Part shown: positions 6,140 to 63,731 of the stretch, piece by piece | Position numbering within the stretch: position 1 is the stretch's first letter | Layout: every line of letters begins with the position of its first letter | Assembly (NCBI GenBank): GCA_048938025.1 | Contig: JBHLMP010000006.1 | Coordinates: 23,316-87,315, forward strand | Source: Promethearchaeota archaeon | Lineage (GTDB): Archaea > Asgardarchaeota > Lokiarchaeia > Sigyniarchaeales > SOKP01 | Direction of reading: 5' to 3' | DNA length: 64,000 bases | The notes under the pieces: model-generated | What the model saw: only the letters and a program-made list of their open reading frames with translations | What the model was told of the DNA's origin: nothing | Databases searched by the model: none | Made by a program: the position numbers and the translations under genes

Positions 6140-6154
6140 AAGAATAAGAGCTAA

Positions 6155-6778: not shown

Positions 6779-6938
6779 CATGTGTTGGTGATAAGATATC
6801 AGGGAATCAGCAAATTATGGAAATTGGGTACCATTAAATTTATTATACTTTTTAATAGGTGCAAATTTAATTTTATTAATCCCTTCCTTATTCCCAATTC
6901 CTCTAATCGTTAGAATAGTATTATGGGTAATTATAGGA

Positions 6939-7562: not shown

Positions 7563-7569
7563 ACTTAAA

Positions 7570-8217: not shown

Positions 8218-8320
8218 GTATGAAGATGTTATAAAAAAATATGAAAATATGGACTATACAAATATTAAATACAATTGAAAAAATTGAATTAATAAGATTT
8301 TAAAAAATAGCTGATTTAAA

Positions 8321-12991: not shown

Positions 12992-14242
12992 TTATCGCCA
13001 TTCAGTACCACAATGACCGCATTTATATTTATGACCATAAACTCGTGGATATGCAAATATTATATGAGTTTTATCAATTATTTCCCGAATGAGATCTTTG
13101 TTAGCATTTCCACATTTAGGACATCTACGCCTTCCCTCAGAACTTCCCTCTAAAATTATTTGTCCTTCTTTTTCTAGTTCAGGAGAGATGATTGATTTCA
13201 ATTCTTCTACCAAAGAATAAGAAGAAATAGCCTGTTCTGTTTCCTCAACATTTAGCTCTTGGGTATCTATTGTAATCTTTTCTTCCATCTTTAATGCAGG
13301 TTCCATTAATTGTTCAGTCTCAACTTTTAAAGGTTTTTGAGAGGGGACCTTAAGTTCTTCATGAGGTTGAGGAATTGCTACTTCCACTACTTTTTTACCT
13401 TTTTCTTTAAACCTTTTATTTTCATCCTCGAGAGCGACTACTTGTTCTTGTAAAATAGCGATTTCTTTTTCTAATTGTGCAATATCCGGTTTTTGCATCT
13501 TTAAAAAGTCAATGTTATTTCTTAATAAATTGGTTTCGTTTACCAATTCATGGATTTTTTCATTTTTATTAAGAATTAAATTTTCTAATCTATTAACTTC
13601 TTCCATCAAGTTTGCTATAGTATTACGAGTACTCTCAATGAACTCAACATCAGGTTTTTCTTTCTCTTTGAGTATCCTATTATTATCCTCTAATTCAGCA
13701 ATCATTGCTTCTAAATCTATAACTTCTTCCTCTAATTGTGCAATTGTAGCCAACTCAGTTTTTAAATCTCGGATATTATTTTTTAACACTCTATTTTCAT
13801 GTTCTAATTCAGAAGCTTGATTTTTTAATGGTTCAAGATTTTTCTCTAATCTATGGTACTCTTCTGTTAAATTTTCGATTTTTTTAGTATACTCTTTTAA
13901 AATCAGGGGATCCACTGTTTCACCTAAATTTTCTTTTTGTTTCGAAAATTCAAGATTTAAATTTTCAATTTTTTTTTGTAAAATTTCACTTTCATAATCT
14001 TTCTGAGCTAACTCTTTTCGCTGTGAAGAAACCATATTTTTTAAAATTGTAATTTCTTCTGATTCATTTAAACTATCGGCGGTAACTTTGCCACTTAATA
14101 AGGTTCGTGAATTCTGTTCTTCTAATTGAGCATTTAACCTATTAATCTCATTATTCAATTTTTCTATAATCTTTTCCAATTCTGCTCTGTTCCTTTCTTC
14201 TTCTTCAGCTTTATCAATTAAATCCTTTAAATTTTCGCTCAT
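12992..14242 (-). CDS. Long coiled-coil protein with C-terminal CxxC...CxxC zinc ribbon
   Basis: About 290 aa of heptad-rich E/K/L/N sequence with an internal ~52-aa duplication. C-terminus CPKCGN...CGHCG. Confidence 0.6.
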   Translation of the reverse strand: MSENLKDLIDKAEEEERNRAELEKIIEKLNNEINRLNAQLEEQNSRTLLSGKVTADSLNESEEITILKNMVSSQRKELAQKDYESEILQKKIENLNLEFSKQKENLGETVDPLILKEYTKKIENLTEEYHRLEKNLEPLKNQASELEHENRVLKNNIRDLKTELATIAQLEEEVIDLEAMIAELEDNNRILKEKEKPDVEFIESTRNTIANLMEEVNRLENLILNKNEKIHELVNETNLLRNNIDFLKMQKPDIAQLEKEIAILQEQVVALEDENKRFKEKGKKVVEVAIPQPHEELKVPSQKPLKVETEQLMEPALKMEEKITIDTQELNVEETEQAISSYSLVEELKSIISPELEKEGQIILEGSSEGRRRCPKCGNANKDLIREIIDKTHIIFAYPRVYGHKYKCGHCGTEWR

Positions 14243-15168: not shown

Positions 15169-17445
15169 TTATTCTTTAGGTTGAAAGACTTTTTTCTTTA
15201 TCAAATTAAGGATTGTTTCAGCCTCTTTTGCATCAAAACCCTTTCTTATTGATAATAGACTAGTAACAGTAAAATAATCCTTGTTTTGCTTTTTCATAAT
15301 CACTTTAGCTCGACTTGCCATGGATTTTTCATCCGACTTAAGTTTAATATCTCGTTTAATTATTTCTAATGGATATATTAAAGCTGTTTGTAAATGTTGT
15401 TCAAGTAATTCACCGATTCCTTTAAGTGGTGTTATATTTCCATTAAAGCTTTCAATTATATTACCATATCTTTTATTAATATCATAAGATAAAGCTCTAA
15501 TTGATTCTAAAAAGTCATGTGAAGGATTTTCTTTCATAATAAGCAAAATTCTAAAAGTCTTAAATTCTGACATTAAGATTTTTGAATCGTGATATTCCAA
15601 TTTTATTGTCTGAGATTGTTCACTAGCTCCAGTTAATTCAATACCAAAGCTACGAATTGCTTCAAGAAATCCAGCAATTAATGAAGCATCAATAGATTTA
15701 CCAGCATAAATCTGCTCGTATATATTTAACCCAGATTTCTTATGTGTAATAATCAAATAATCTAAATTTAAAACATCCATATATTTATTAAAAATACTCT
15801 GTCTGTATACCTCATGTTTTCTCTTAGAGATTTTAACAAGTTTATATGTGGTAAAACTAGCAATAGATAAAATTGCTACAGCAGATACTATTATAACAAT
15901 TAGCATCGGATCTAAGACAAAAGGAATACTTACTTTAAATTCTTGAGTAATAACACCTGCATCCGTAGCATTATTCCAGAAAATGTAAGCCTTATAAATC
16001 CCTTCATTAGGACTAGATGGAAGTTGATAACTCAGTATGAGATCTTCTGTTCCGATTGAATCTATTATATAAACTTCATCTGGCTGAGCGGGATAACCTA
16101 ATGAATTAATTAACCTAAAAGTAATATTTCCTGGAGGAATTGGAGACAGAACAGAAAATTGTATTTCTTGACCTGCTCCAAACTTTGTTTTTTGTACATT
16201 TAAAGGAAGTTGTATATTTGGAGAATTTGCTGTTATTCTCCAGTCCGATCCCTCTATTATTGTATTATTCTGAAGAAATATAAAGTGATTTATTGGATCT
16301 TTTATAACATCTATGGTAATATTTTCCCATCCAAAACCTATATCTCTATATATAGTTAAATTATACCAATTGTTTGGATATATAAATTTAATAGAATAGT
16401 TACTATAACATCTATCAAACTGTTGAGTCATTATCCAAGTATTTTTCAAATTCTCTTTAATTAATAATTCCCACTCCGTATCAAGAATATTTTGAAGTTT
16501 TATATGATAACTTAAATTGAATAATAACTCAGAGACTCGATTATTTACTATTGGTATATTATATATTTCAGATAAAGGAGAAATATCTTTACTGATATTT
16601 AATTGACCTGTTTCAGGTTCTGTTCCATTTAAGATGGGATAATAAATACCATCAATAATTGCACTCATATTAATTTCCTCTGGATCAAAAGATTTATCTA
16701 CTCTTTGAATTAATTTATATAATAAAGGTTCTCCCTTAGCTTCCCAGTTCCATTTTGCTCCGTCATGTTTTGCTGTATTCAAATTAGCATTAATAGATCC
16801 ACTATCATTGTAATACCAATTATATGCTGTTCTATCACCAGGAATATTCATTTCAGTTCCATTCATTACCAAATAATATTGACCACTTGAAAGTGATATT
16901 GGATTTTCGAAAGTTTGGATATACCAATCAAAATTATTAGTCATATTTATTGGTACCGTTCCATAAATATTATCATCTGGTATGTTTTCTGCACCATTAT
17001 ATCCTTGTATTTGTATATATGCTGGAATTGATGGATCTTCACCACTACGAACTCCATATATATATACTCCAAAAATATCTGTAGGTACGGTAATATTAAT
17101 TTGCACACCATATCCATATTCACCCTTAAAACCGACTGTTTTGGTTTCATCTCCCTCTTCTTCAATTGTTATAATTTCTTTTCCTAACTTTATATCAGTA
17201 AAATTAAGCTCCATATTTGTAATGTTCCAAGTTGCTGATGGTAAAGGAATATTTATTGAACTTATGTCTATACTTATATTTATATTATCTGAATATTCAA
17301 TCATAGGGACGTTTGAATTTATCTCAAGTGATTCATCATTATTTTGAGCATTAACAAAATTGGTGATATAAATTAAACTTACTAAGAAAAGAGTTATGAT
17401 TGTGAATCCTATTATATAAGATCTTGATTTATATACCTCTTTCAA
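15169..17445 (-). CDS. Single-pass membrane protein: sequon-rich ectodomain, TM helix, cytosolic longin/roadblock-like plus winged-helix-like tail (paralog A)
   Basis: N-terminal signal/anchor, about 490-aa ectodomain with many NxS/T sequons, and TM helix LDPMLIVIIVSAVAILSIASF. The 224-aa cytosolic tail (nt 15172-15843) contains LDYLIITHKKSGLNIYEQ...LIAGFLEAIRSFGIEL...IKLEYHDSKILMSEF. Confidence 0.6.
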   Translation of the reverse strand: MKEVYKSRSYIIGFTIITLFLVSLIYITNFVNAQNNDESLEINSNVPMIEYSDNINISIDISSINIPLPSATWNITNMELNFTDIKLGKEIITIEEEGDETKTVGFKGEYGYGVQINITVPTDIFGVYIYGVRSGEDPSIPAYIQIQGYNGAENIPDDNIYGTVPINMTNNFDWYIQTFENPISLSSGQYYLVMNGTEMNIPGDRTAYNWYYNDSGSINANLNTAKHDGAKWNWEAKGEPLLYKLIQRVDKSFDPEEINMSAIIDGIYYPILNGTEPETGQLNISKDISPLSEIYNIPIVNNRVSELLFNLSYHIKLQNILDTEWELLIKENLKNTWIMTQQFDRCYSNYSIKFIYPNNWYNLTIYRDIGFGWENITIDVIKDPINHFIFLQNNTIIEGSDWRITANSPNIQLPLNVQKTKFGAGQEIQFSVLSPIPPGNITFRLINSLGYPAQPDEVYIIDSIGTEDLILSYQLPSSPNEGIYKAYIFWNNATDAGVITQEFKVSIPFVLDPMLIVIIVSAVAILSIASFTTYKLVKISKRKHEVYRQSIFNKYMDVLNLDYLIITHKKSGLNIYEQIYAGKSIDASLIAGFLEAIRSFGIELTGASEQSQTIKLEYHDSKILMSEFKTFRILLIMKENPSHDFLESIRALSYDINKRYGNIIESFNGNITPLKGIGELLEQHLQTALIYPLEIIKRDIKLKSDEKSMASRAKVIMKKQNKDYFTVTSLLSIRKGFDAKEAETILNLIKKKVFQPKE

Positions 17446-17592: not shown

Positions 17593-19905
17593 TTAAACAG
17601 CAACTTGAAAAATATTTTTCTCTATTAATTTAAGAATTATTTCAATATCTTTAGGGCTGCAAGTTGTTTCAGATATTAAATCTTTAATATGAAAAAAATC
17701 TGTACCCTTTTTTTTCATAATTGATATTGCATCATCAATAAAATATTTCTCATTAGGGCTAATTCGAATTTTCTCTAATTTATCTCCATTAACAAATTTT
17801 AGAGGATATACAATTGATACATTAAGATGTTTTACAAGTAAATCTTCTATAGTTTTAAATTTTCTAACATCTCCATCAAATTGATCAATTAAATTCCCAT
17901 AATTCTTATAGATATCATAAGCTAAATCTTCAAGTGAATAGAGTAAAAATTCTGATGGACTTTCTTTTAATATGAGAATTAATCTAATATTTACAAATTC
18001 GCTCATTAATACAATTGAATTTCTATATTCTAATTTTATGGTCTGAGATTGATTTTCAACTTTCATTAATTCAATTCCAAATGAAGAAAGGGCTTGTAAA
18101 AACCCGGAAATTAAAGTACCATTTAAATCTTTACTTGTAAAACTTTGTTCATAAACACTTAATCCAGATCTCTTATTTGTCACAATAAGATAATCAAGGT
18201 TCATAATATCCATACATTTACTGAATTTTTTATGCTCTTCCTCAATCTTACTAGCTCGAATCTTTTTAATTGTTCGATAAGATATTAATCCCCCAACAAT
18301 CCCTACTATTCCTAGTATAACACCAGTAACAATCCATATTGGATCTATAGTAAAGGGGATCGGAGGTTTAGCTACTTGAAAGTCTTGAGACTGAACACCT
18401 GCATCTGTGTTATTATTCCAATAAATTAAAATATAATATGAGCCTTCACGTGAATTTGATGGAATTGTATAAGAAAATAACTGTTCTGTAGAACTAATTT
18501 CTCTTGTTTCTATTGGTTCTTCATAACCAAAACCTAATGAATTGATAAAAAAGAATGTTAGATTACCTTCGGGTGCTGGTGCAGAAACAGTAAATTGTAA
18601 TTCTTGTCCTGGTTCCCAATCCAAGACAGGAAGGTTTAAGTCAAAAATTATATCTGGCGAATTTGCAGTGATTCTCCATTCAGCACCACCAAGTATAATA
18701 CTATTAGGAATGAGAATTGTATTTGTATTATTATCTATAATGGTACTAGATGTAAGGTTATCCCATGATAATCCTAATTTTCGAGATATTGTAAAGTTAT
18801 ACCAACTATCTGGATAATTAAACTTTACATAATAGTTAGAACCTACACTATTTAAAAGCGGAAATAGTGACCAACGATTATTAGATTCTTCAACAATTGC
18901 AGAGGCTTTAGTTGAAAAGTTATTGTTTAGAGTAATTGAAAAATTATAATCATAATTTAATATCAGAGACTGATTAATCATGATGGGAATATTTAAATCA
19001 ATCTCCTCAGAAAAGTGAGTTAAATCGGATAAATTTAAGAACCCATCCCCTATAGTTAATCCATCAGTTATTTCATAATTATCTCCATTAAATTGAGCAG
19101 TCATATTTAATTCTGAAGGAAAATATAGTTGATTTGGATCAGAAATTTTCAATTTGCATAAGAAACTTGAATTTACTGTACCAATAGCCCAAGAAGTTAT
19201 ATAAGAGGAAGAATGCAAGAAAGGAATCTCAGGATCTAAATCATCTTTCTGCCAAAAATACTTTGCTTGATCATCTATAGGTAACCCAGTTCCGTTCATT
19301 ACTAATGAATAATTTCCAATCGGTAATGTAATAGGATTTGTAATAAAATCTTGATAATACCAATCTAAATCAGTAGATATATTTAAATTGATAGATCTAT
19401 AAATTATACCATTAGGTATGGAATTAATTTCGTTAAATCCTTGAAGTTGGAATTTAATTGTCTCGTTTGCCTGTGGGGTTTTATATGCTTTGATGTACAC
19501 ACCTAGTAAATCGGTTTCCTCCAAAATTTCAATTTGAGTCGCTAGAGCAAAGGTTCGAAAATTAACATTTTTATTCCATACTTGCCCCAATGCAGTTTCA
19601 CTTTCTTCAATAACTCTAACATCACTTCCTAAACTTATGTCAGAAAAATTAATTTGTATATTTGAAATTGTCCAATTTGGTTCTGGTAAATCGATTTGAA
19701 TTGAACTAACATTCTCTTTCAATCCTTCAATTTGACAATATTCATAAAATCCAAATTTAGATGAAATTGTAAAAGGTTCACCATTAGTTTGAGCATTTGA
19801 AAATCCTATGAAATTATTTAAAAATAAAAGAAAAAAGAATAGAACTAATATGATTCCTAAAACAGTTTTCGATTTAGATATACTTAGTCCCATAAAATTG
19901 ATCAA
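17593..19905 (-). CDS. Single-pass membrane protein, paralog B of 15169-17445
   Basis: Same architecture as paralog A. Shared blocks WRITANSP, FINSLGF and LDYLIVTNKRSGLSVYEQ...LISGFLQALSSFGIEL...IKLEYRNSIVLMSEF. Alternative start at 19893. Confidence 0.6.
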   Translation of the reverse strand: MINFMGLSISKSKTVLGIILVLFFFLLFLNNFIGFSNAQTNGEPFTISSKFGFYEYCQIEGLKENVSSIQIDLPEPNWTISNIQINFSDISLGSDVRVIEESETALGQVWNKNVNFRTFALATQIEILEETDLLGVYIKAYKTPQANETIKFQLQGFNEINSIPNGIIYRSINLNISTDLDWYYQDFITNPITLPIGNYSLVMNGTGLPIDDQAKYFWQKDDLDPEIPFLHSSSYITSWAIGTVNSSFLCKLKISDPNQLYFPSELNMTAQFNGDNYEITDGLTIGDGFLNLSDLTHFSEEIDLNIPIMINQSLILNYDYNFSITLNNNFSTKASAIVEESNNRWSLFPLLNSVGSNYYVKFNYPDSWYNFTISRKLGLSWDNLTSSTIIDNNTNTILIPNSIILGGAEWRITANSPDIIFDLNLPVLDWEPGQELQFTVSAPAPEGNLTFFFINSLGFGYEEPIETREISSTEQLFSYTIPSNSREGSYYILIYWNNNTDAGVQSQDFQVAKPPIPFTIDPIWIVTGVILGIVGIVGGLISYRTIKKIRASKIEEEHKKFSKCMDIMNLDYLIVTNKRSGLSVYEQSFTSKDLNGTLISGFLQALSSFGIELMKVENQSQTIKLEYRNSIVLMSEFVNIRLILILKESPSEFLLYSLEDLAYDIYKNYGNLIDQFDGDVRKFKTIEDLLVKHLNVSIVYPLKFVNGDKLEKIRISPNEKYFIDDAISIMKKKGTDFFHIKDLISETTCSPKDIEIILKLIEKNIFQVAV

Positions 19906-29698: not shown

Positions 29699-31432
29699 AT
29701 GAATAGTATGTTAAGCTTTATTGATAACAATTTGGTACAAGATATCTTTAATTCTAATGAATTTAAAGGATGGCTTCTTTCAAAAAGATGGTTTGGAGAT
29801 AAATCTGCATTATCTAATCTTGAGTTCAAGATTAACCTAAATTATTTTGAAATTCTTTCTGAAAGGATACTACTAACTGTAATAGATATTCAAAAACCGG
29901 AATATAAAAAATCTTATTTCTTGCCTTTAATTTATTACGAAAAGATTCAAGAAATTCTTGAGCTAAATGAAATAAGTAATAAAAAAAAAATTCTGGCCCT
30001 TACAGTTAATACCTTTAGTAAGAAAATAGTCTTAAATATTGAAGGAGAACAAAAAATATTCACAGTAAATTTAGTAGAAGGTGAATATTGTCTTTTCTTC
30101 TGGAAAAAAATATTATTTGATAAAGAGATCTCTGAAAGCTTTCCATCTCGTTCTTTAGATTTAACACTTTATACTGAACAGTTTCAAGATGAGGCTAATA
30201 TGAAAAAGGTTCAAAATTTAATTGAAACTAGTTTATATCCTGATCGATATTCACTCTCATTGACACAATTAGGAGGGGGAAATACCACAAATACCTTATT
30301 TTTATTATCAATTTTAAATAACAGAATGCCTGATCAAGAACCAAATACATATGTGTTAAAATCATATAAAGAATATTTGGAAAGTTTAGAACCAGCTACT
30401 TTGTTTATTTTAGTACAAAATGAATTTCCAAATGCACCTAAAATATATGGTACAATTAAATTGAGGGATAAAGAAACAATTGGTATCCTTGAAAACGTCC
30501 CTAATATAGGAAATTTGGGAGATATCTATTGGAGTGAACTTAATAACATGCTTAATAGGGAGTTTAAAGATTTTAACAAAGATTTCTCTCAATTAACCGA
30601 AAAATCTAACATTTCTCAAGTAATAAAGGAAACTTGTTATGAAACATTAAAAGTCTCTGATGAAATTGGATACTATATTAAAAGATTACATGAGTCTTTA
30701 ATTTACCCAGAAAGAGAAGAATATAACTTAGAATCTGTAGAAAGTAATAAGTATCTTGCATCTTATACAGAGAAACTTAATTCAATGATTACAGAATTAC
30801 AAAATACAATGAACCTTCAAACTGATAATTCATTTTTTAATTTACCTAAAATTAATTCAATACTAATTGATATTAAAGACATTATAGAGACTCTTAGAAT
30901 TGATTTTAAAGAAATAAAAATTCAAATTCAACCTGTGCATCAAGATTTGCATATGGAACAAATTTTGTATAATAAAATAAATGATCAATATCAGTACTAC
31001 TTTATAGATTTTGAAGGAGATCCACAATTAACTTTCACAGAAAAAAAAGGAAAATTTCCAATTGAAAAAGATTTAGCGTCCTTTTTAAGGGCATTAAGCT
31101 ATATAAAATTCAATACATTTCTTAAATTCATAGAACAAAAAGTGATTAGGAAGGGTAAATATGAAGTTCCTGAAGAAATTCTTTATAACATAATTTTTAG
31201 AAGAGCTGCTAGACCCATAAATAAAACACTTGATGTTGTTCTTAAGGTTTTAAACATCTGGGAATCAAAATTAATTGGAAAAATTTTAAAAAATTTAAAT
31301 GTACATTATACGCTAATTACCTACTTTTACATCGAAAGAGCATTACATGAATTAAACTATGAAATGCTATTTAGACCAAGTAAAATAATTGTGCCAATTT
31401 TAGGACTAAAAGAAATAATTGATAAAAGTTAA
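29699..31432 (+). CDS. Maltokinase (Mak/Pep2)-like aminoglycoside-phosphotransferase-fold kinase
   Basis: N-terminal cap WLLSKRWFGDK and catalytic-loop-like VHQDLHMEQIL, then DFEGDP. Confidence 0.5.
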   Translation: MNSMLSFIDNNLVQDIFNSNEFKGWLLSKRWFGDKSALSNLEFKINLNYFEILSERILLTVIDIQKPEYKKSYFLPLIYYEKIQEILELNEISNKKKILALTVNTFSKKIVLNIEGEQKIFTVNLVEGEYCLFFWKKILFDKEISESFPSRSLDLTLYTEQFQDEANMKKVQNLIETSLYPDRYSLSLTQLGGGNTTNTLFLLSILNNRMPDQEPNTYVLKSYKEYLESLEPATLFILVQNEFPNAPKIYGTIKLRDKETIGILENVPNIGNLGDIYWSELNNMLNREFKDFNKDFSQLTEKSNISQVIKETCYETLKVSDEIGYYIKRLHESLIYPEREEYNLESVESNKYLASYTEKLNSMITELQNTMNLQTDNSFFNLPKINSILIDIKDIIETLRIDFKEIKIQIQPVHQDLHMEQILYNKINDQYQYYFIDFEGDPQLTFTEKKGKFPIEKDLASFLRALSYIKFNTFLKFIEQKVIRKGKYEVPEEILYNIIFRRAARPINKTLDVVLKVLNIWESKLIGKILKNLNVHYTLITYFYIERALHELNYEMLFRPSKIIVPILGLKEIIDKS

Positions 31433-37909: not shown

Positions 37910-39058
37910 TTAAAACTCTTTATAATAAGAGATTAATGTATTTTTTATTTTTTCAAAATGTCCTAAATGCACCTTTAAGAGATCATCTAATGTTTCTCGG
38001 AGTCCTGCCTCTTGTACTTTCTTTAAGATTTTAAAATATGGTGATTCTTTGAGATTTTTTTCTAAAGGTTGATTTATTTCTGTACCTTTTAAGAGAAATT
38101 CGAGAGAGTCAACTTCTTTTACATTTATATTTTTTTGAATAATTTCTAACAACATTGTGTCAAAAGTAATCCTTAAAATAACTTCGTGATCAAAATCACC
38201 TGTTTTAGGCAATAGAACCTCCTTAAGAAGTGATATTGACTTTTGAAAGAGAGTAATTGAATCTTGTCCTAATTCTTTTATCTTTTGTCCAAAAGACCGA
38301 TTCTTAGTAAGAGTGAGACATAAAGTAGCTAGTGTTTGATATTCGGCTACAAAATGAATAAAGCGTGCTTTTGTGTTGAGAATTGTGTCTTTTGATTCTT
38401 CTTCACCTAAAAGTTCACCTAAATTATCAATAGATTTTCTGAAATATGTTGCTATTTCTAAGAATTTATTTGCTGAAGCTTCATAATCTTTGGCAGATAA
38501 TAGAAGAAGTGCATTTTTTTCTTCTTGTTCATATAATTCATCAAATTTGTTAATTCTCATAACAGCTTTTAAAATCAATCGTTTTCCTAAATCTTTTTTA
38601 ATACGAGAACGCTCATAAGCTTGTCCTGCTTTCAGAAGAAGAAGAGAAGAAGGGCTATGAAAGTCTTCTGGATCAGCTTTGATCAAATACTCAGAAGCTT
38701 TTTCCCAGCTTTCTCCAGCGGATTCCCAATCATTCATTTTATAAGAGAGATTTGCTAATCGCATGAGTAATTTAGCTGAGATTTCATATAGCTTTAATTC
38801 TTCAGTCTTTCTAATTATTGATTTTAATCGATAAAGTGCTTGAATATTATTCTTAAATTGAGATATAATCTGAACAATTCTAATAAATAATTCATCTAAT
38901 TTGATATAACTCCCTAAATCAATATAAATTTCAGCAGCTTTCTCATAAAGATCGATAGCTTCATCTCCTTTACCTTTATCAGCAAGATTCTCCGCTCTAT
39001 CAATTAATTGAATTGCTTCTAATTCTCTATCATCGTTATATGTATTACTAAACACCAT
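37910..39058 (-). CDS. All-helical TPR-like repeat protein (hypothetical)
   Basis: Repeated helix-hairpin patterns such as EAIDLYEKAAEIYIDLGSY and NDWESAGESWEKASEYL. Confidence 0.45.
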   Translation of the reverse strand: MVFSNTYNDDRELEAIQLIDRAENLADKGKGDEAIDLYEKAAEIYIDLGSYIKLDELFIRIVQIISQFKNNIQALYRLKSIIRKTEELKLYEISAKLLMRLANLSYKMNDWESAGESWEKASEYLIKADPEDFHSPSSLLLLKAGQAYERSRIKKDLGKRLILKAVMRINKFDELYEQEEKNALLLLSAKDYEASANKFLEIATYFRKSIDNLGELLGEEESKDTILNTKARFIHFVAEYQTLATLCLTLTKNRSFGQKIKELGQDSITLFQKSISLLKEVLLPKTGDFDHEVILRITFDTMLLEIIQKNINVKEVDSLEFLLKGTEINQPLEKNLKESPYFKILKKVQEAGLRETLDDLLKVHLGHFEKIKNTLISYYKEF

Positions 39059-40252: not shown

Positions 40253-40540
40253 TTAAACAATTCTGTCTTTAGGTTTTCTTGTTTTTTTAATCTTTAACTT
40301 AATATCATGTTCTGAGATAAGCCAGACTAATACATCATAAGGTATCTTACGAAAATAGATTTCTGCCGCTTTTTCTCTGACTCGCTCTTTGTTCGTTAAC
40401 CTTGGATCTCGTTGAACAAGTAATTCTCGTTCGGCGAGCATCCAACATAAATTGTCATATGTGTAGTTCCTTTGTGAAAGATAATATGCAGCAACATTAA
40501 TTTGATCTTCTAAATCTATTTCTTTTCCACTCATTTTCAC
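40253..40540 (-). CDS. Hypothetical small helical protein with basic tail
   Basis: 95 aa. Lies 42 nt downstream of and co-directional with the vWA-zinc-finger gene. Confidence 0.45.
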   Translation of the reverse strand: MKMSGKEIDLEDQINVAAYYLSQRNYTYDNLCWMLAERELLVQRDPRLTNKERVREKAAEIYFRKIPYDVLVWLISEHDIKLKIKKTRKPKDRIV

Positions 40541-40582: not shown

Positions 40583-41785
40583 TTATTGAAGGTCAAGTTT
40601 GACACCACATTTTTTACACTGAGAATCTAATAATTTAACAAAGCAATCTTCATGGTATAGTTGACCACATTCTGGGTTACCACATTTAACTACTTTTTGA
40701 CCTTTCTCAAAAATAAATTGGCATATAGGACAACTTAAATAGAGATCATCCTCTCTAAGCGCATCAATATTCATTAATTTTGCCGAAAATGTCTGTGGTT
40801 TCTGAAAACTAGTTTCTTTTTTACCTTTTGAAAGAACCCTTAATTTCTGTATTTGGGAAACTTCAGTTGGGATTTTTAATAGATAAAAGCAGTGGGGACA
40901 CCTTGCAGTTCCAGATTTTTTTAATATACTGCTTTGTTGAGAATCTGCCCATGCTGCTAAACAATGAATATGAAATGGAGTTTGACAATTAGGACAATAT
41001 CTACCAGTAATATAAAATGATCCTTTAGTATATGGATTTTTATCAGAAAAGCAGATTGAGCATTTTTTAAAATCAGCTTCTCCTCTCAACTGTTTTATAC
41101 GCTGTTCTTGATCTTTTGTTAAATCTTGAACTCTTAATAAATTTGCAGCTATTTTCCTAAGGAAAGCTGGATTTTCAATATCGATTTTCTTTACTCCATA
41201 ATTTTTTACGTTAGCTTCAGCAAATTCATGAGCAGATTGTAATAAAGTTCCTCCATCATTATTAAAATAATATCTACCTCCTGTGAGATCACTTATTTTT
41301 TTTAAGATATTGACTTGGCTCGCGTCTCCAATTCTAAAAGTATCAATTTTTATATTTAATCCTTCTGCAAGACGAGCCATTCTTAAAGGATCGATAGCTG
41401 TATTTTTTGAATAGTTTCCATCAGAAATAAGAAGTATTTTAGGATTTTTAGCAGCAATTTTTCTTAATTCAGCAATAACAGTTTTAATTGATAAAGCTAG
41501 CCCTTCTCCCATATCAGAATTCCCTCCTAGTTTTATAGAATCCAATGCTGAAAAAAGGCTATTTATAAAAGTTGAAGTTGTAAAGTCTATAACCTTTTCT
41601 GCTATATCAGAAAATTTAATAATTGCAAACGCACTTGAAGTATCTAATTTAAATCTATCAGTTATTAATTTTTTAACAGCTTTAATACAACAAATTAATC
41701 GATTAGGAGTATAATCTGTTCTAAACATTGATCTTGATGTATCGATGCAAATAACGATATTTTCAGGGACTCTTTGCTCAGACAT
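40583..41785 (-). CDS. vWA-domain protein (p44/Ssl1-Rpn10-like) with two C-terminal C4HC3 cross-brace zinc fingers
   Basis: MIDAS DTSRSM followed by DYTPNRL. LTGGRYYF block. Finger 1 (aa 242-299): C-x2-C-x18-C-x2-C-x4-H-x2-C-x20-C-x2-C. Finger 2 (aa 352-393): C-x2-C-x12-C-x4-C-x4-H-x2-C-x8-C-x2-C. Confidence 0.65.
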   Translation of the reverse strand: MSEQRVPENIVICIDTSRSMFRTDYTPNRLICCIKAVKKLITDRFKLDTSSAFAIIKFSDIAEKVIDFTTSTFINSLFSALDSIKLGGNSDMGEGLALSIKTVIAELRKIAAKNPKILLISDGNYSKNTAIDPLRMARLAEGLNIKIDTFRIGDASQVNILKKISDLTGGRYYFNNDGGTLLQSAHEFAEANVKNYGVKKIDIENPAFLRKIAANLLRVQDLTKDQEQRIKQLRGEADFKKCSICFSDKNPYTKGSFYITGRYCPNCQTPFHIHCLAAWADSQQSSILKKSGTARCPHCFYLLKIPTEVSQIQKLRVLSKGKKETSFQKPQTFSAKLMNIDALREDDLYLSCPICQFIFEKGQKVVKCGNPECGQLYHEDCFVKLLDSQCKKCGVKLDLQ

Positions 41786-41996
41786 CTTATTTTGAAAATC
41801 TTATTGAGAATTTTGTTAGACAAAATCTAATAAATCTATTTTATATATGTATATTAATTTATAAATAAATAACAGTCTTCAGAAAAATAAAGTTTTATTT
41901 TCAATTATACTAATATTTAATAAAACGTTTTACAACTATTAAAATAAAGAATATATTATAAAATTAAAAAGTAAATGTAATTTAATCTGATGCATA

Positions 41997-43205
41997 ATGT
42001 CAGAGAATAGTGAAAAAGAGATTATTATTAAAGATTTTTTTAAAAGTAATGTAATTTTCTCAGAATTAGATGAAGTTTTAAGATTAAAGCCAGAAACTAT
42101 GATTGGTATAGATAAAGTAAGTTCTGATAAATTAGTTGAACATAATATCAAAACTGTTGAAGATCTAGCCAATCTATCAGTTGATAATCTCCCTGAGATT
42201 GAAGATTTATTACCTAATATATTTAGTAAGTGGGTCAAAATAGCTCAAGTCATACAAAAAGCTGTAAAAGAACAGTTAAGACGTCATAAGAAGCTTTTAA
42301 TGATCGGCTTAGATGCAGCGGGTAAAACATCAATCCTAGCAATAGTTCAAGATAAATTCTCGATTATAAAATCCTTGTTACCAACTAGAGGTGTAAAAAG
42401 AGAGAAACTAGACTTTTTCGGTTACCCGATTATAAGCTGGGACCTCGGAGGCCAAATTCAATATCGTGAGAAGCTATACTTCAATAGACCAGAATTATTT
42501 TTCACCGAGGCTGACCTTCTTTTATATGTTATTGACAGTCAAGATTTAGAAAGATTAACAGAATCAGCTAATTATTTTCGGGAAGTTCTAAATTCCTTAA
42601 TAGATTTACATGAGCAACCAAAGATTTTAATAGTTCTTAGTAAAAGTGATCCAGACTTTCGTAAATCATTCCAATGGCAAAAAAATGTTGAAAGTATCAG
42701 AAATAAATTTGACAAAGTTGCCGATGAATATGAGCAATTCACTGTAGATTATTGTGATACATCAATATTTCAACCCACGACCATCTGGCAAATGTTTAGT
42801 ATTGCCTTGAAGAAAGTTTCTGAAACTTCTGAAATTATCGAAAATATTCTTGAAGATTTTACTAGTCAGGTTGAGGGGAAAGCATCAAGTTTAGTTTCGA
42901 TGGACGGATTAATTTTTGGCAGTTATACCAAAACTAGTACTGATGAGATGTTAGTAAATAATACAGCACTTCTATTGCAAACACTTTCGAATTTTTATAA
43001 TTCAATTGGTCTTATTAGAGAAAAAACAATAAGTCTTGATTTACCACTTAATGGGTTTACTATTCGGGGTGAAAAATTGTTTGAGTATTCAGAGCTTCAA
43101 ATACCTGTATATTTATGGCTGCTTTCGGAAAACCCAGAATTATTACGAGGTAAAATTGATTATTTTAGAACACAATTATTGCCTTTGATTAACTTGTTCA
43201 TCTGA
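41997..43205 (+). CDS. Arf-like small GTPase with N-terminal HhH-like segment and C-terminal roadblock/LC7-like domain
   Basis: G1 GLDAAGKTS (Arf-type), switch I LPTRG, G3 WDLGGQ, G4 SKSD. aa ~280-402 show an alpha-beta-beta-alpha-beta-beta-beta-alpha pattern (ASSLVSMDGLIFGSY...). Confidence 0.7.
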   Translation: MSENSEKEIIIKDFFKSNVIFSELDEVLRLKPETMIGIDKVSSDKLVEHNIKTVEDLANLSVDNLPEIEDLLPNIFSKWVKIAQVIQKAVKEQLRRHKKLLMIGLDAAGKTSILAIVQDKFSIIKSLLPTRGVKREKLDFFGYPIISWDLGGQIQYREKLYFNRPELFFTEADLLLYVIDSQDLERLTESANYFREVLNSLIDLHEQPKILIVLSKSDPDFRKSFQWQKNVESIRNKFDKVADEYEQFTVDYCDTSIFQPTTIWQMFSIALKKVSETSEIIENILEDFTSQVEGKASSLVSMDGLIFGSYTKTSTDEMLVNNTALLLQTLSNFYNSIGLIREKTISLDLPLNGFTIRGEKLFEYSELQIPVYLWLLSENPELLRGKIDYFRTQLLPLINLFI

Positions 43206-46318: not shown

Positions 46319-46858
46319 ATGAGCAGAGCCAAAAGTCCTTTTTATAAAATATGTATAGTAGGAGACACTGGAGTTGGAAAAACTACATTAATGCATCAAT
46401 ATTTAGATTATAGATTTTTAGCAAATATCAGATCCACTATTGGTTCAGATTTTTTTATAAAACATCTTCAATTACCCGAAGATCATCAATCATTTACACT
46501 TCAAATTTGGGACTTAGCTGGGCAACAACATTATAAATGGGTAAGAAATGCTTTTTATAAAGGAGCGAAAGGAATTGTTTATGTATTTGATCTAACTCGA
46601 AGAGACACATTTGAAAATATTCCAAATTGGAAAAGTGAGGTTGAAGATGTTATTGGAGTTGTACCAAATATGTTTGTAGGTAATAAATTGGACCTTATTG
46701 AATCTATAGGGAGATTAGTAACAGATGAAGAAACACAGAAAATAAAAGGTGAATTAAATTCTATTAGATACGTAGAAACAAGTGCAAAAAAGGGTTTTGG
46801 GGTAAAAGATATTTTTCTTAATTTAACAAGAGAAATTTACAGTTCATGTCGAAAATAG
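46319..46858 (+). CDS. Rab/Ras-like small GTPase
   Basis: G1 GDTGVGKT, G3 WDLAGQ, G4 GNKLD, G5 ETSAK. 179 aa. No CaaX box (ends SSCRK). Confidence 0.85.
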   Translation: MSRAKSPFYKICIVGDTGVGKTTLMHQYLDYRFLANIRSTIGSDFFIKHLQLPEDHQSFTLQIWDLAGQQHYKWVRNAFYKGAKGIVYVFDLTRRDTFENIPNWKSEVEDVIGVVPNMFVGNKLDLIESIGRLVTDEETQKIKGELNSIRYVETSAKKGFGVKDIFLNLTREIYSSCRK

Positions 46859-46920: not shown

Positions 46921-47517
46921 TTAAAGGGTAGAGAGAAAATCAGAAACTGCTTCTTCTGACGGTTCTGGATCGACAACAGAACTATCTAGTTCTTCACCTA
47001 TTATATCAAATGTATATGTGCATTTATCAGCACCTAATAGAACACATTCAGATTCCCTTCCATCAACATCAATTTTTAAGATTTCAAATACCCCTTGGAA
47101 GATGCCTAAGTAAAGTAAGCACAGGTTTTTAGCCATAATGTTATCTTCTTCTTGAGATGCTAGAGGATCATTTACACCTATTTGGATTTTATTTTTTCCA
47201 AAGTGTGCTCTTAATTGTCCATAGCCCATTAATTCCATAGATTCAAGAATACCTAGAAAAACATCTTTTTTAGTAGCAATATTTTCAAGAGCCCAATCTT
47301 TATTGTAAAAGAATTTTTCCATAAAAGATCTTCCCAGGGTTTTTCCTACCCAAGTTAATATATCATCAGCATTTGTACCAGCAAATTCAGTGAATTCGAT
47401 TAAGTCAATAGGTCTTAACATTAATAAGCGCATATCTTTCTTTTTTTCGCCGAAAAATAGTTGTCCTAATTTCTCGTCAATCATTAGTTGTAATTCTTTT
47501 TTCAATCTTTTTGACAT
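46921..47517 (-). CDS. V4R-domain protein (TRAPP Bet3-like fold)
   Basis: 198 aa. LRPIDLIEF...GKTLGRSF and the C-terminal conserved Cys pair ECVLLGADKCTYTF are typical of V4R. Confidence 0.6.
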   Translation of the reverse strand: MSKRLKKELQLMIDEKLGQLFFGEKKKDMRLLMLRPIDLIEFTEFAGTNADDILTWVGKTLGRSFMEKFFYNKDWALENIATKKDVFLGILESMELMGYGQLRAHFGKNKIQIGVNDPLASQEEDNIMAKNLCLLYLGIFQGVFEILKIDVDGRESECVLLGADKCTYTFDIIGEELDSSVVDPEPSEEAVSDFLSTL

Positions 47518-47642: not shown

Positions 47643-48698
47643 TTAAGAAGCGACCAAATTAAAAATTGTTTGGATTACAGCATCAAGATTATGTTTAGTC
47701 TTTACTGAAGTGAAAAGAAATGCCCAATCTCTATGTTTAATATCTTCAAAATTAAAAAAATCATATAATTCTTCTTTTAATTTCTCTAGTTGATTTTCCC
47801 TGCTTTTTTCTGAAGATTTAATTAAATCTATTTTATTACCCACGATCAATAAAGGAATACCGAACAAATCATCTCTATTCACAATATTCCAGAATTCTTT
47901 TTTTGATTCTTCAAATCGTATTTGGTTAGCTATATCGATCATAAATACAACAATATTTGAGTCTTGTAAGCCAATCAACCATTTTTTTCGAAAATTTTGT
48001 TGACCTGGCATATCCCAAAAAGCCAGTAACCCTTTTTCTTGTTTTTCAATATATTCAATATTGAATTTTCGAGTCGGAGCAAAGAAATTATCATTGAATT
48101 CACCTGTTTTTATTCTTCTTACAAGGGATGTCTTGCCAACTTCATCAATTCCAAATAAAAAGACTTTAATAAATAATTCTTGCTGGTAATGATAGACAAT
48201 TTTAGGAGGTTTTTCAATAATTTCATCCCCATATCTTCTAATATCAATGAACATCGAAATTAGCAAATTTTCTATTTCAATTTCATCATCAAAAGAATAT
48301 ACTGTTCCATTAATTAATAATTCACTCAATAATTCTTCAAAAATTTCTTTATAATCATAAGGATTATCTTCTTCATCAAAAATTAGACCAATAAGTATTT
48401 TTCCATTTATACAAGATGTGTATATATTTAAATCATTAACAATTTGTGCAACAGGCTTATCAATTTTATAATGATTTGATTTTTCAGTTAAATCAGGGTT
48501 ATAAATTGATAAATTATTATGGATATTATTCTTGTTATTTAGATTTGCCTGATCATGACCAGTAATAATCATATTAACAAGATTTTTGTCATTGATATTT
48601 ATAATTTCATTTGGATAGCTATAGATATTAAGATCTTTTAAGTCTTGAAATTTTTTCCCTTTAAATAGAAAAATGTTATGTAACAATGAAATTTCCAA
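47643..48698 (-). CDS. Arf-like small GTPase with ~165-aa N-terminal extension
   Basis: G1 GIDEVGKTS, switch I APTRK, G3 WDMPGQ, G4 GNKID. The N-terminal region has no recognised motif. Confidence 0.75.
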   Translation of the reverse strand: MEISLLHNIFLFKGKKFQDLKDLNIYSYPNEIININDKNLVNMIITGHDQANLNNKNNIHNNLSIYNPDLTEKSNHYKIDKPVAQIVNDLNIYTSCINGKILIGLIFDEEDNPYDYKEIFEELLSELLINGTVYSFDDEIEIENLLISMFIDIRRYGDEIIEKPPKIVYHYQQELFIKVFLFGIDEVGKTSLVRRIKTGEFNDNFFAPTRKFNIEYIEKQEKGLLAFWDMPGQQNFRKKWLIGLQDSNIVVFMIDIANQIRFEESKKEFWNIVNRDDLFGIPLLIVGNKIDLIKSSEKSRENQLEKLKEELYDFFNFEDIKHRDWAFLFTSVKTKHNLDAVIQTIFNLVAS

Positions 48699-52637: not shown

Positions 52638-53870
52638 ATGGAATGGGGTATTATTAATAAAATTAATTTTAAAGATAAAACTACATATGATATTCCGATT
52701 AAGAGATGGGATCCTTTATCGACAGTAAAAATTAAATCTAAGGATTTTGGTCTTGGAAAAAAGCGTGAAAGGCATTATGGGCATTATTCCTACTTAAGTC
52801 CTATTAGAGGCAAAAGACCAAAGGGTTATGATGAAGTAGAAAAAAAAAGTGAACTTGAGCATTGCCCAAAAAAGATTTTTGCAAGAGTAAAGGATGTTTT
52901 TATGGCAGTCACAGAGGGAAAACCTATTTTTGATGATTGGGGTTATCAACTCGGTGATGGTTTCACTATCATTATAAATCAAGATGAAAAAAAGCTTGAC
53001 AATCCTTTTTCAGATATTCCTCATCGAATTAAAAGACTTCCTGATTCTTGTAAAGCAGTTACTTTGATAAATCGATATCCATCAATGGCTCGGATAATAG
53101 ATCCTAAAATAGAGGATTATATTGTTGAAAAATTACCTCCTCATCTAAAACTTGCGAGGGGTATAAATTTAGTAACCATTTCGAGAAAATTTTATCCTTC
53201 ATTATGTTTTAATTTAATCCCTGAAGAAATTATTGCTGCAATTTTTTTATCTATGAAAGCAGCAATCCTCTATTGTGTTCAAGAATCTATAGAACGTGAT
53301 TATTACGATATCCCAATAAATCCTTTTTTTAATATAGGAATGAAAGTAGGAGGGTCACAACCTCGAATACATAGTCAGGTATATGTTGATTTGAATGGTG
53401 ATGGTCATGGAGGTAGATTGGAAGGATATTTAAGGGCGTTTAAAGAGATGGGTAATAAGTGTCATCTATGTGAAACTACACATGGAAATACAGATCGTAT
53501 TATTTTAAATACCGAATTTTGGACTTTTTATACAACAGGAAGTCCAGTGAGAAATTATCACATTCGTTTTCATCCAAATGAGCACTTAAGAAGGTTTTCT
53601 CAATTGAAAATTAATCAATTAAATGATTTAGCAAAAGCTATAAGAATTATCTTTCAGGCACTTGATGATATAGAAATAGATAAGAATAGAAACCTTTTAT
53701 TTAATTGCTGTCCTTTTGGATATGATGATGATTTTCATTTATTTGGTGATATTATTCCACATGAGGTAATTGGTGGAGCAGAAATGGCAGATGACATGCG
53801 AGTTGCAAGGAAGTTACCCCATATAGCTGCAGCTGAAATCAGAAAGGCATTAATTAAGTATATTAATTAA
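52638..53870 (+). CDS. GalT-like (HIT-superfamily) hexose-1-phosphate nucleotidyltransferase/phosphorylase
   Basis: SPIRGKRP block, as in GalT (SPHRAKRP). Active-site-like GGSQPRIHSQVYV retains the nucleophile His and the Gln. Confidence 0.5.
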   Translation: MEWGIINKINFKDKTTYDIPIKRWDPLSTVKIKSKDFGLGKKRERHYGHYSYLSPIRGKRPKGYDEVEKKSELEHCPKKIFARVKDVFMAVTEGKPIFDDWGYQLGDGFTIIINQDEKKLDNPFSDIPHRIKRLPDSCKAVTLINRYPSMARIIDPKIEDYIVEKLPPHLKLARGINLVTISRKFYPSLCFNLIPEEIIAAIFLSMKAAILYCVQESIERDYYDIPINPFFNIGMKVGGSQPRIHSQVYVDLNGDGHGGRLEGYLRAFKEMGNKCHLCETTHGNTDRIILNTEFWTFYTTGSPVRNYHIRFHPNEHLRRFSQLKINQLNDLAKAIRIIFQALDDIEIDKNRNLLFNCCPFGYDDDFHLFGDIIPHEVIGGAEMADDMRVARKLPHIAAAEIRKALIKYIN

Positions 53871-62582: not shown

Positions 62583-63731
62583 TTATGATGATTTTAATTC
62601 TTCAATAATTTTATTCTTTTCTTCTATTGTCAACTTTAACTTATTTATTCTATTCTGCAAATCTTCAATTAAATCAGCCATTGGACCACTAGGGACGGCT
62701 TTCTGAGCAGGTTTTAACGTTTGTAATTTTGTAATTAAAATATCCTTCTCTTTTATTTGTTCTTGAAGATCCTTTACTTTATTTTCAAGATTATTAACTA
62801 AAGTTGCTGGTTTAGTTTCTTCTGATTTTAATTTTAAAGAGTTTTGCAATTTCGAAATTTCATTTCTAAGATCTTCATTTTCATTCTTAAGTTCTTTTAT
62901 CTCATTAGGTTCTAATCGAAAACCGCCTTTCGCTAAAGCTTGCTTTAATTCTGATTTTTCTTCGGTTAATTGCTTAATTATTCCTTTAGTTCGATTTAAA
63001 TCAGATTGTAAATCTTGGCAAAGCAGCTCAAGAGTGGTTGATGGAGATTGAGTTGATTGTGGCTTAATTTCTGGTTCTTTAGATATTTCGACAGGAACTA
63101 CATAATCTATTGGTAGTGTTTTTAATTTTTCAAGTAATTGTTCATTAAGAGCTTCATTTTCTTGCATCAATTCATCAATTTTTGTATCTTTAGTTTTGAT
63201 TGATTCTTCATATTCTGCAATTAATAATTTCTTTTTCGATAATTCTGACTGTAAATCTTCAATTAAAGTGTTAGTTACTGTTAATTCTGAATCCGATTCA
63301 ATACTAGGCTTAGGTTCTGGTTGCCTTGGTGTTGAATAACTTTCTATTCTTAATTCAGCAATCTCTCTTTCTTTTTCATTTAATTCTTCGTCTTTTTCAA
63401 GAATTATTCTTTCTAATGTTTTTACTTTTTCCTTTAGTTTGATGCTTTCTTGTTTGATAATTTCAGTTGCAGCTCCACTTCCAATCTGTCTTGGTTTTAG
63501 TTGTTCTTTTAATCTTTCGTTTTCTTCAATAGTTTCTTTAATAACTTTTTCAGTTCTACTAAGTAAATCAATGTTTTGCTTGATTTTATTTCTTAAATCT
63601 TCGTTTTCTTTTTCTACATCTTTAATTCTCTCAAAGGTATCTCCTATTACACTAGGTTTTTTCATTTTATTTTCCATCTTTTGTTTCCACAAACCGATAA
63701 AATCTTCTACTTTTTCATTATCTTCTGGCAT
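62583..63731 (-). CDS. Coiled-coil protein with three linker-plus-LxEDLQ modules
   Basis: E/K/L-rich heptads. The three modules are LIEDLQSELSKKK, LCQDLQSDLNRTK and LIEDLQNRINKLK, each preceded by a P/S/T/Q-rich linker. Its stop abuts the PfkB ATG. Confidence 0.6.
   Translation of the reverse strand: MPEDNEKVEDFIGLWKQKMENKMKKPSVIGDTFERIKDVEKENEDLRNKIKQNIDLLSRTEKVIKETIEENERLKEQLKPRQIGSGAATEIIKQESIKLKEKVKTLERIILEKDEELNEKEREIAELRIESYSTPRQPEPKPSIESDSELTVTNTLIEDLQSELSKKKLLIAEYEESIKTKDTKIDELMQENEALNEQLLEKLKTLPIDYVVPVEISKEPEIKPQSTQSPSTTLELLCQDLQSDLNRTKGIIKQLTEEKSELKQALAKGGFRLEPNEIKELKNENEDLRNEISKLQNSLKLKSEETKPATLVNNLENKVKDLQEQIKEKDILITKLQTLKPAQKAVPSGPMADLIEDLQNRINKLKLTIEEKNKIIEELKSS

Follow-up and report, generated by a model that had tools for sequence, protein, structure and literature searches.

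The p44 subunit of TFIIH (Ssl1, GTF2H2) is made of a von Willebrand factor A (vWA) domain, a C4 ribbon and a C4C4 RING-like domain (Pfam C1_4), in this order. It binds XPD via the vWA domain and p34 via the RING, and Ssl1 has been reported to possess ubiquitin ligase (E3) activity. vWA domains generally bind an acidic residue of the partner through a bound metal. Plants encode vWA-RING E3s of two kinds, RGLG1/2, in which a copine-type vWA domain is followed by a C-terminal RING, and WAV3/SOR1, in which the RING is N-terminal to the vWA domain. To our knowledge, core TFIIH subunits apart from XPB and XPD are usually regarded as eukaryotic inventions. No known prokaryotes are more closely related to eukaryotes than Asgard archaea, and it can be asked which parts of the ubiquitin system, and which parts of large eukaryotic complexes, are older than eukaryotes. 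The gene described here touches this question. It is found in a stretch of 64,000 nucleotides, hereafter called the window, from a Promethearchaeota (Asgard) archaeon of the Lokiarchaeia, and encodes a protein in which a vWA domain is followed by two RING-type zinc fingers (vWA-RING protein).

The locus resembles several described systems and differs from each of them. As in p44, an N-terminal vWA domain precedes a zinc module and a C-terminal RING-like domain. BatA/BatB-type proteins (PDB 4rck, 3ibs, 4jdu) have the closest vWA domains by profile, with the same motifs in and around the metal ion-dependent adhesion site (MIDAS), but feature N-terminal membrane segments and no zinc fingers, whereas the vWA-RING protein is predicted to be soluble and has two RINGs. 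Rpn10/PSMD4 has a related vWA domain, but is equipped with ubiquitin-interacting motifs (UIMs), has a degenerate MIDAS and lacks zinc fingers. The plant RGLG and WAV3 proteins similarly unite a vWA binding module and a RING E3 domain in one chain, but the vWA subtype and the type and order of the RINGs vary, one RING being present there and two here; Pfam Copine and Vwaint do not match the window protein. FANCL and SLX1 for the first finger, and RING-H2 ligases of the Arkadia/RNF4 type for the second, are the best matches found, at the level of the single domain only, the remaining parts of these proteins being unrelated. The small RING E3s of Asgard ubiquitin/ESCRT clusters come from the same phylum and presumably act in the same pathway. 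They are short, single-RING proteins encoded within ubiquitin operons, whereas the vWA-RING protein is a 400-aa fusion encoded outside them. Lokiarchaeota genomes carry ubiquitin, E1, E2 and E3 genes, the cascade being located in a separate genomic region (PMC9192718), and in vitro activity has been described for an E1/E2/RING-E3 cascade of Helarchaeial origin (bioRxiv 10.1101/2023.07.25.550441).

Architecture and conservation of the vWA-RING protein

The gene spans positions 40583-41785 of the window on the minus strand (stop codon included), and is an ATG-started open reading frame (ORF) of 400 aa. An earlier note, drawn up from the sequence alone, had described this ORF, the 211-bp gap separating it from a divergent GTPase gene and a 95-aa ORF located downstream, and all these coordinates agree with the ORF listing. 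The motifs and the spacing of both fingers that it had recorded match the translation exactly, nucleotide positions included, and the order proposed there, a vWA domain and then two C4HC3 RING-type fingers, is borne out by Pfam, profiles and the structural model. The vWA domain covers aa 9-190 (41216-41761, minus strand), as indicated by Pfam, AlphaFold and Foldseek. Residues 12-35 read ICIDTSRSMFRTDYTPNRLICCIK and include the MIDAS motif D15-T-S17-R-S19 (41729-41743, minus strand). Further MIDAS residues are S90 (41516-41518) and D122 (41420-41422), both on the minus strand, and an LTGGRYYF block corresponds to aa 167-174. The window protein has a complete MIDAS on a modelled vWA fold, and metal binding is predicted. 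A conserved helical linker, recognized by conservation and in the model, follows at aa 204-236 (ENPAFLRKIAANLLRVQDLTKDQEQRIKQLRGE; 41078-41176, minus strand). The first finger, RING1, is of the FANCL/SLX1-like C4HC3 type and spans aa 242-299 (40889-41062, minus strand), with the ligands arranged as C242-x2-C245-x18-C264-x2-C267-x4-H272-x2-C275-x20-C296-x2-C299, and includes the tract F271-H-I-H-C-L-A-A-W279. The second, RING2, is a RING-H2-like C4HC3 finger at aa 352-393 (40607-40732, minus strand), with the arrangement C352-x2-C355-x12-C368-x4-C373-x4-H378-x2-C381-x8-C390-x2-C393. RING1 was delimited by ligands, profiles and Foldseek, RING2 by Pfam, profiles, Foldseek and hhalign.

In Pfam the window protein matches VWA (55.3 bits) and VWA_2 (52.7 bits) and, above their cut-offs, Ssl1 (37.5 bits, cut-off 27), zf-RING_2 (32.7 bits, cut-off 27.3) and PHD_NSD (26.8 bits, cut-off 23.9); a weak match to Tfb4/p34 is also found. 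C1_4 (PF07975), a model that the earlier note had proposed to try, matches neither the window protein nor its family. Prokaryotic RING family 1 (PF14446) scores 19.2 bits on the window protein, below the cut-off of 29.1. No dedicated Pfam or NCBIfam model was found for the family, and the NCBIfam matches of the window protein are partial, BatA-like and far below threshold.

A search of 5.8 billion proteins returned 358 homologues (best E 1e-254). The best 120 of the 358, from which all details were taken, are full-length (about 400 aa, as are the full-length homologues at large) and 62-95% identical. Named homologues are denominated just "VWA domain-containing protein" or "YegL", and derive from Promethearchaeota metagenome-assembled genomes (MAGs). 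Relatives were found at 137 places in a scan of species-representative genomes which, seeded with close orthologues, recovers close orthologues only. The best 80 of these places are all in Asgard MAGs, the closest being isolate 9R3_44 (95% identity). For comparison, 79 translated orthologues were aligned to the window protein, giving 80 species-level sequences. More distant members were provided by a hidden Markov model (HMM) search of 1.84 billion cluster representatives, in which about 45 clusters at E < 1e-30 include many full-length relatives at just 22-40% identity; 27 of these and the window protein make up a divergent alignment of 28 sequences. Organism-labelled divergent members are all assigned to Promethearchaeota, Lokiarchaeia or Helarchaeota.

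D15, S17, S19, S90 and D122 are invariant in 80/80 orthologues. The 16 zinc ligands are also invariant in these sequences, with the exception of one C381H replacement, so that the loss of ligands among orthologues, contemplated in the earlier note as evidence against the fingers, is not observed. RING1 is the best-conserved segment, with a mean identity of 82% between the 79 orthologues and the window protein, and the linker preceding it comes second (77%); the vWA domain (65%), RING2 (61%) and the spacer between the fingers (44%) follow. In the divergent alignment W279 and 15/16 ligands are invariant, C381, I244 and P297 reach a conservation of 90% or more, and so do the linker residues A213 and L216. 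PF14446 is matched by 7/28 of these sequences at E < 1e-3, and Pfam C1_1 by 11/28.

The vWA-RING-RING proteins are an uncharacterised, Asgard-restricted family with paralogues, whose individual parts are all of known kinds. In the searchable literature no paper was found that joins Asgard archaea with a vWA-RING protein, or with TFIIH/p44. The vWA-RING protein, of which at least 80 species-level genomes carry one orthologue each, is among the most conserved RING proteins of Lokiarchaeia. Two family members, MHA1729673 and MHA1730627, have neighbouring accession numbers and, because these are so close, are probably paralogues of one assembly. Longer relatives also occur (P0150, P0154 and P0158, 619-686 aa, the first labelled Helarchaeota), which match the vWA domain and RING1 only (profile positions about 7-330), RING2 being replaced by about 300 other residues.

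The two fingers were compared by profile to PDB sequences. For finger 1 (profile of 28 divergent sequences) the best match is the RING of FANCL (E 8e-4), followed by the C-terminal RING of SLX1 (0.01), the PHD finger of KDM2A and the RINGs of listerin, Vps11/PEP5 and NSE1. For finger 2 the matches are RING-H2 ligases, Arkadia (1.7e-9) and RNF4 (2.5e-8) first, and then RNF165, RNF24, RCHY1, Hrd1 and gp78. An AlphaFold model computed from 12 close sequences was good for the vWA domain (predicted local distance difference test, pLDDT, about 85-94) and poor for the fingers. The C-terminal half modelled from a 25-sequence alignment reached a mean pLDDT of 88, with values > 90 for residues 207-316 (linker helices and RING1) and for RING2, and low confidence for the spacer between them. 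According to this model, linker and RING1 would be packed into a single module. A UIM or its inverted form (MIU) had been considered for the linker helix (aa 206-219, IAxxL) and was discarded, as the pattern is unfit, no Pfam UIM is matched and the helix is modelled within the RING1 module.

Foldseek matches of the C-terminal model are single RING domains (probability 0.97-1.0), several of which were solved with an E2. RING1 retrieves the Ube2T-bound RING of FANCL (4ccg, probability 0.98-0.99), and RING2 retrieves RNF165 (TM score 0.67, root-mean-square deviation (rmsd) 2.6 Å, probability 1.0); RNF13, RNF12, Ark2C and RNF38 are found as well. Both fingers are RING folds with eight ligands each in a cross-brace, as profile and model comparisons consistently indicate. 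The surface by which RINGs bind E2s is formed by an Ile/Val after ligand 1, a Trp after ligand 6 and a Pro after ligand 7. RING1 carries I244, W279 and P297 at these positions, conserved in 79/80, 80/80 and 79/80 orthologues, respectively. RING2 lacks the E2-type Trp and Pro.

Proposed function and the p44-like alternative

We favour, with moderate confidence, the view that the vWA-RING protein is a soluble, cytosolic, RING-type E3-ligase-like protein of Lokiarchaeia; E3 activity, like the ubiquitin-receptor function also contemplated in the earlier note, is inferred from sequence comparisons and structural models. The vWA domain with its MIDAS would be the recognition module, the metal serving to bind an acidic residue on the partner or substrate. 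RING1, together with the linker, would be the catalytic core that recruits the charged E2 of the Asgard ubiquitin system; this role is assigned to RING1 because it is the most conserved part of the protein and keeps the E2-type Ile, Trp and Pro. RING2 may be an auxiliary zinc module comparable to the RING-like domain at the C-terminus of p44, with a part in partner binding, in dimerisation or in structure, since it is more variable and devoid of the E2-type Trp and Pro. Were the protein an active E3, it would provide a defined ligase with a built-in binding domain for the reconstituted Asgard E1/E2 cascade.

Two distant family members have noteworthy neighbours, of which that of P0270 favours a ubiquitin connection. 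P0270 (32% identity, L091:5001-6182) is divergent from a gene encoding a 274-aa ThiF/E1-like protein (L091:4017-4841, minus strand; PF00899, 142 bits). P0123 (34% identity) has a proteasome alpha-subunit gene at 2.3 kb and an Arf/Ras-like GTPase gene at 3.3 kb (L089:4075-4794, 5063-5653); the proximity of the proteasome gene, a single case, is suggestive. Downstream at the P0270 locus are found genes for a VTT-domain membrane protein and for a 440-aa Arf-like GTPase.

Several observations weigh against an E3 function. RING1 lacks the basic linchpin, the Arg/Lys after the last ligand that primes the E2-ubiquitin conjugate, which is typical of highly active RINGs and not universal; the residue after C299 is Phe in 78 and Tyr in 2 of the 80 orthologues. 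RING-like domains can be purely structural, an example being the C-terminal RING by which p44 binds p34. The DxSxS motif of the MIDAS is degenerate in many distant members of the divergent alignment, which means that not all family members share metal-dependent binding. The ThiF-like neighbour of P0270 is a single case too, and might be a sulfur-transfer enzyme. Lastly, a scan of window ORFs with a length of 90 aa or more, a range above the size of ubiquitin, detected no gene for ubiquitin, E1, E2 or a JAB protein. It is unlikely that the host lacks the conjugation machinery altogether, because the published Lokiarchaeota genomes carry the ubiquitylation cascade.

Some of these features would equally suit a non-catalytic scaffold akin to p44, in which the vWA domain and the fingers hold together a multiprotein complex and no ubiquitin is transferred. 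To the missing linchpin and the weak Tfb4/p34 match may be added that RING2 aligns ligand-for-ligand to the RING-like domains of p44 proteins (hhalign, 48 columns, 93% probability, E 3e-7), an alignment no stronger than that of RING1 to RING2 (92%), and weaker than the RING-H2 matches of RING2. The best Foldseek matches of the full-length model are p44/Ssl1 (E 3.5e-15, about 410 columns), at an rmsd > 20 Å, and therefore add little to the superposition of the vWA domains. In contrast to p44, the module that follows the vWA domain is not a C4 ribbon, but a complete C4HC3 RING with the E2-type Ile, Trp and Pro; the MIDAS is intact, that of p44 reading DGSRT and being devoid of the later Thr and Asp. 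Moreover, the profiles of the fingers fit active E3 RINGs far better than p44, Pfam C1_4 is unmatched, and no gene for an XPD-, p34-, p52- or p62-like protein was seen in the neighbourhoods examined. The p44 resemblance lies in the layout and in a modest affinity of the vWA domains; orthology, or descent from a common p44/Rpn10 ancestor, is hypothetical. A scaffold of this kind is in our opinion unlikely, the E3-like protein being preferred.

Affinities of the vWA domain

The earlier note had taken the pattern DxSxSM...D-x-PNRL as a signature of the Ssl1 clade, shared by p44 and Rpn10. The pattern is not specific. Below the family members, the search of cluster representatives returns BatA-like proteins of about 320-340 aa, and the consensus of 42 of these bacterial proteins reads DxSxSMxxxDFxPNRLxAAK ... 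GTAIGxG ... LLTDG ... TGGxYFxA. Since the BatA-like consensus carries the same motif, the latter does not distinguish p44 and Rpn10. When the PDB is queried with the window protein alone, bacterial 4rck (4e-6) precedes p44 (1.3e-5) and Rpn10 (7e-4). With a profile of 12 sequences 4rck is again first (1.9e-11), followed by S. pombe Rpn10 (4.9e-10), human p44 (1.3e-8), plant Rpn10 (4e-7), BatB (5e-6), Ssl1 (1.3e-5) and BatA (3e-5). In hhalign comparisons of vWA domains, the family scores 246 (E 4e-40) against BatA-like proteins, a value inflated by the BatA set having been picked as the best matches of the family itself, and 122 and 103 against p44 and Rpn10, respectively. BatA-like domains score 115 against p44 and 86 against Rpn10, and p44 and Rpn10 score 66 against each other. 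By this measure the family is slightly nearer to p44 and Rpn10 than BatA-like domains are.

HMM cross-scoring points in the same direction. The median score of the eukaryotic p44 vWA HMM is 42.4 bits for Lokiarchaeial orthologues, while BatA-like domains reach 20.5 and the remaining vWA domains 10.4; that of the Rpn10 HMM is 21.4 for the orthologues and 14.9 for BatA-like domains. In the reverse comparison, the family HMM scores 38.1 on p44 and 57.6 on Rpn10 sequences (medians), the BatA HMM 26.6 and 33.0. The rank-test p values of these comparisons exaggerate the significance, as orthologues are not independent samples; the direction is consistent throughout. In neighbour-joining trees, a split grouping the family with p44 and Rpn10 is supported by 76/100 bootstraps with BLOSUM-based distances, by 43/100 with Kimura-corrected distances, and by 10/100 when slow-evolving orthologues alone represent the family, a fall that suggests long-branch attraction. 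Pfam Ssl1 (PF04056) is matched by 13/28 family members, and also by 9/42 BatA-like proteins (E < 1e-3). With the vWA domain alone, Foldseek gives TM scores of 0.79-0.83 for p44/Ssl1, 0.72-0.79 for Rpn10 and 0.72 for BatB.

The assignment to a p44/Rpn10 type, as made in the earlier note, holds in part. Ssl1 is matched above cut-off, p44 and Rpn10 rank among the best PDB matches and the p44 HMM scores the orthologues about twice as high as BatA-like domains; the best PDB and hhalign matches are BatA-type, and tree support ranges from 10 to 76/100. The vWA domain seems to fall in a broad neighbourhood of intracellular vWA domains that includes BatA, Rpn10 and p44, in which it retains a prokaryotic, MIDAS-intact character. 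Its distance to p44/Rpn10 is measurably, though not decisively, smaller than that of the remaining prokaryotic domains in the sample.

The same data may be read in a simpler way, the protein being an ordinary BatA-type vWA protein with incidental fingers and no link to p44, Rpn10 or ubiquitin, and acting, for instance, in the metal-dependent binding or the aggregation of proteins. The rank of 4rck, the hhalign score, the BatA-like proteins found next after family members, the shared motifs (DxSxSM..PNRL, GTAIG, TDG, TGGxYF) and the partial NCBIfam matches all fit such a protein. We regard it as rather unlikely. The BatA N-terminal membrane domain (PF07584), detected by Pfam in 17/42 of the aligned BatA-like proteins, is found in 0/28 family members, and the vWA domain of the window protein begins at residue 9. 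No MoxR or Bat operon gene is located beside the vWA-RING gene at the loci examined. The fingers have genuine RING folds and E2-type residues, the family outscores BatA-type domains in comparison to p44 and Rpn10 whichever side supplies the HMM, and every organism-labelled member comes from an Asgard MAG.

A bolder reading of the vWA affinities concerns descent. Among surviving archaeal proteins, the family might be the one most closely related to the p44/Ssl1 (and Rpn10) vWA lineage; a pre-eukaryotic protein that had already the p44-like layout together with an active E3 RING would then be the source of a core TFIIH subunit. We mention this as a speculative idea with little probability. If the vWA domain is truly sister to p44/Rpn10, the architecture of a TFIIH core subunit is older than eukaryotes. 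Should neither this nor E3 activity be true, the protein would still be a vWA-RING fusion with an origin separate from that of RGLG and WAV3 in plants.

Two further alternatives have a lower standing. The fingers could be PHD-like peptide readers or C1-like lipid binders, and the protein an adaptor by which the vWA domain is directed to membranes or to proteins of the chromatin. The C4HC3 spacing is that of PHD fingers, PHD_NSD is matched above cut-off, PHD and PKC C1 domains are present among the PDB matches of finger 2 (1e-4 to 1e-6), and C1_1 is matched, as said, by some family members. These E values are 2-4 orders worse than those of RING-H2 ligases, finger 1 resembles the RINGs of FANCL and SLX1, and the best-superposed Foldseek matches are RINGs. 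PHD fingers, in addition, have a Trp two residues before ligand 7; this is absent from both fingers, and the Trp that RINGs have after ligand 6 is instead kept without exception in RING1. We consider reader fingers improbable. A ubiquitin receptor similar to Rpn10, docking on the proteasome or on PAN via the vWA domain, is very improbable, in spite of the second rank of the S. pombe Rpn10 vWA domain in the profile search, of the higher score of the family HMM (57.6 bits, against 33 for the BatA HMM) on Rpn10 sequences and of the proteasome gene near P0123, since Pfam UIM (PF02809) matches Rpn10 homologues and neither the window protein nor its family, the helix after the vWA domain is modelled inside the RING1 module, and the MIDAS, degenerate in Rpn10, is intact.

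Neighbouring genes and other features of the window

The window has a G+C content of about 29%, and its genes are archaeal and Asgard-like, including those for the CODH/ACS (carbon monoxide dehydrogenase/acetyl-CoA synthase) alpha subunit, MtrH, RadA and numerous small GTPases. The intergenic region that the vWA-RING gene shares with the divergent GTPase gene (41786-41996) is 211 bp long, with about 85% A+T. The GTPase gene (41997-43205, plus strand) encodes a 402-aa Rag/Arf-like protein, identified by Pfam and PDB matches, with an N-terminal helix-hairpin-helix-like region and a C-terminal extension. It matches Gtr1_RagA (78.6 bits) and Arf (69.3 bits), and its residues 87-394 are homologous to PDB 8yl2_A (E 4.7e-33). 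A GTPase-roadblock architecture has been described in Asgard archaea (PMC10933270). The window GTPase fits this architecture by sequence, the roadblock fold being putative.

Gene order was derived from two Lokiarchaeial contigs (3.3 and 1.8 Mb) and from the 80 species-level loci. It is fixed, and reads CdhA, DUF8180, GTPase (-), vWA-RING (+), an optional small ORF, MtrH and a protein with tetratricopeptide repeats (TPR). Counts for the GTPase and the gap refer to the 73 orthologous loci with enough flank, those for MtrH and the TPR protein to 60 loci. The divergent pairing with the GTPase, emphasized in the earlier note, is found in all the Lokiarchaeial loci, the GTPase orthologue lying on the opposite strand in 73/73; the gap is at most 400 bp in 70/73 (median 207 bp). 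MtrH is present in 60/60 loci, and the TPR protein in 59/60. As metabolic genes are equally conserved in the 10-kb block, the pairing reflects block synteny at least as much as coupling. It is also confined to the Lokiarchaeial orthologue group, and no orthologous GTPase neighbour was seen at the 8 distant family members examined. Coupling conserved beyond Lokiarchaeia had been considered and was rejected, as the Arf-like GTPases encoded near two distant members share generic G-domain similarity only. A small GTPase gene is located within 5 kb in about 3/9 independent contexts, a frequency estimated to be not clearly above expectation in GTPase-rich Asgard genomes.

The TPR gene (37910-39058, minus strand) encodes a 382-aa TPR/SNAP-like protein with weak matches to Pfam SNAP, RPN7 and MIT, and is a possible partner gene. 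A family member 41% identical to the window protein, which has no GTPase neighbour, is directly followed by a TPR gene (L005:7285-8424), and the two TPR proteins are 29% identical (E 2e-44). Being kept beside this relative that lacks the GTPase, the TPR protein is a better partner candidate than the GTPase. Both are candidates for partners or substrates by position alone.

The 95-aa ORF (40253-40540, minus strand), found 42 nt downstream of the vWA-RING gene, has no family match and a basic C-terminus; its true start is probably the ATG at 40534. Homologues at 53-93% identity occur in 43/77 loci with enough flank, 23 of which have them on the strand of the vWA-RING gene and 20 on the other strand, while 34 loci have none; the ORF is gone from an entire subclade at 64% identity or less. 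It is no stable partner. That one small gene has been inverted repeatedly while its neighbours stayed in place is peculiar in itself. A role in anti-phage defence was also considered and discarded, as no meaningful PADLOC match was obtained for the vWA-RING protein or its neighbours.

The GTPase gene described above belongs to a group of three small GTPase genes found within 7 kb, with a V4R/TRAPPC3-like gene in between (41997-43205, 46319-46858, 46921-47517, 47643-48698). The GTPases are the Rag-like protein with the C-terminal extension, a Ras/Rab-like protein of 179 aa (Ras 152.8 bits) and an Arf-like protein with a 170-aa N-terminal extension. Eukaryotic signature genes of the trafficking type are thus interleaved with CdhA, and the Arf-like GTPase gene and the V4R gene are located upstream of CdhA also in L001 and L002.

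Elsewhere in the window, two tandem paralogues (15169-17445 and 17593-19905, both on the minus strand) encode proteins of 758 and 770 aa, which are 40% identical (E 4e-159) and have no Pfam match. By eye, each consists of a long N-terminal part, a single hydrophobic segment around residue 510-540 and, at the C-terminus, a conserved domain (LDYLIIT..SGL.IYEQ...GFL.A..SFGIEL) of roadblock- or longin-like appearance; with this domain as the query, no match was obtained among PDB sequences. ORFs of 382-577 aa with no Pfam match at E <= 1e-4 are located at 12992-14242 and 62583-63731 on the minus strand, and at 29699-31432 and 52638-53870 on the plus strand. Three genes for membrane methyltransferases of the PEMT/ICMT type and three for class-I S-adenosylmethionine (SAM) methyltransferases are found at 5570-8818 and 10568-11242 on the plus strand.

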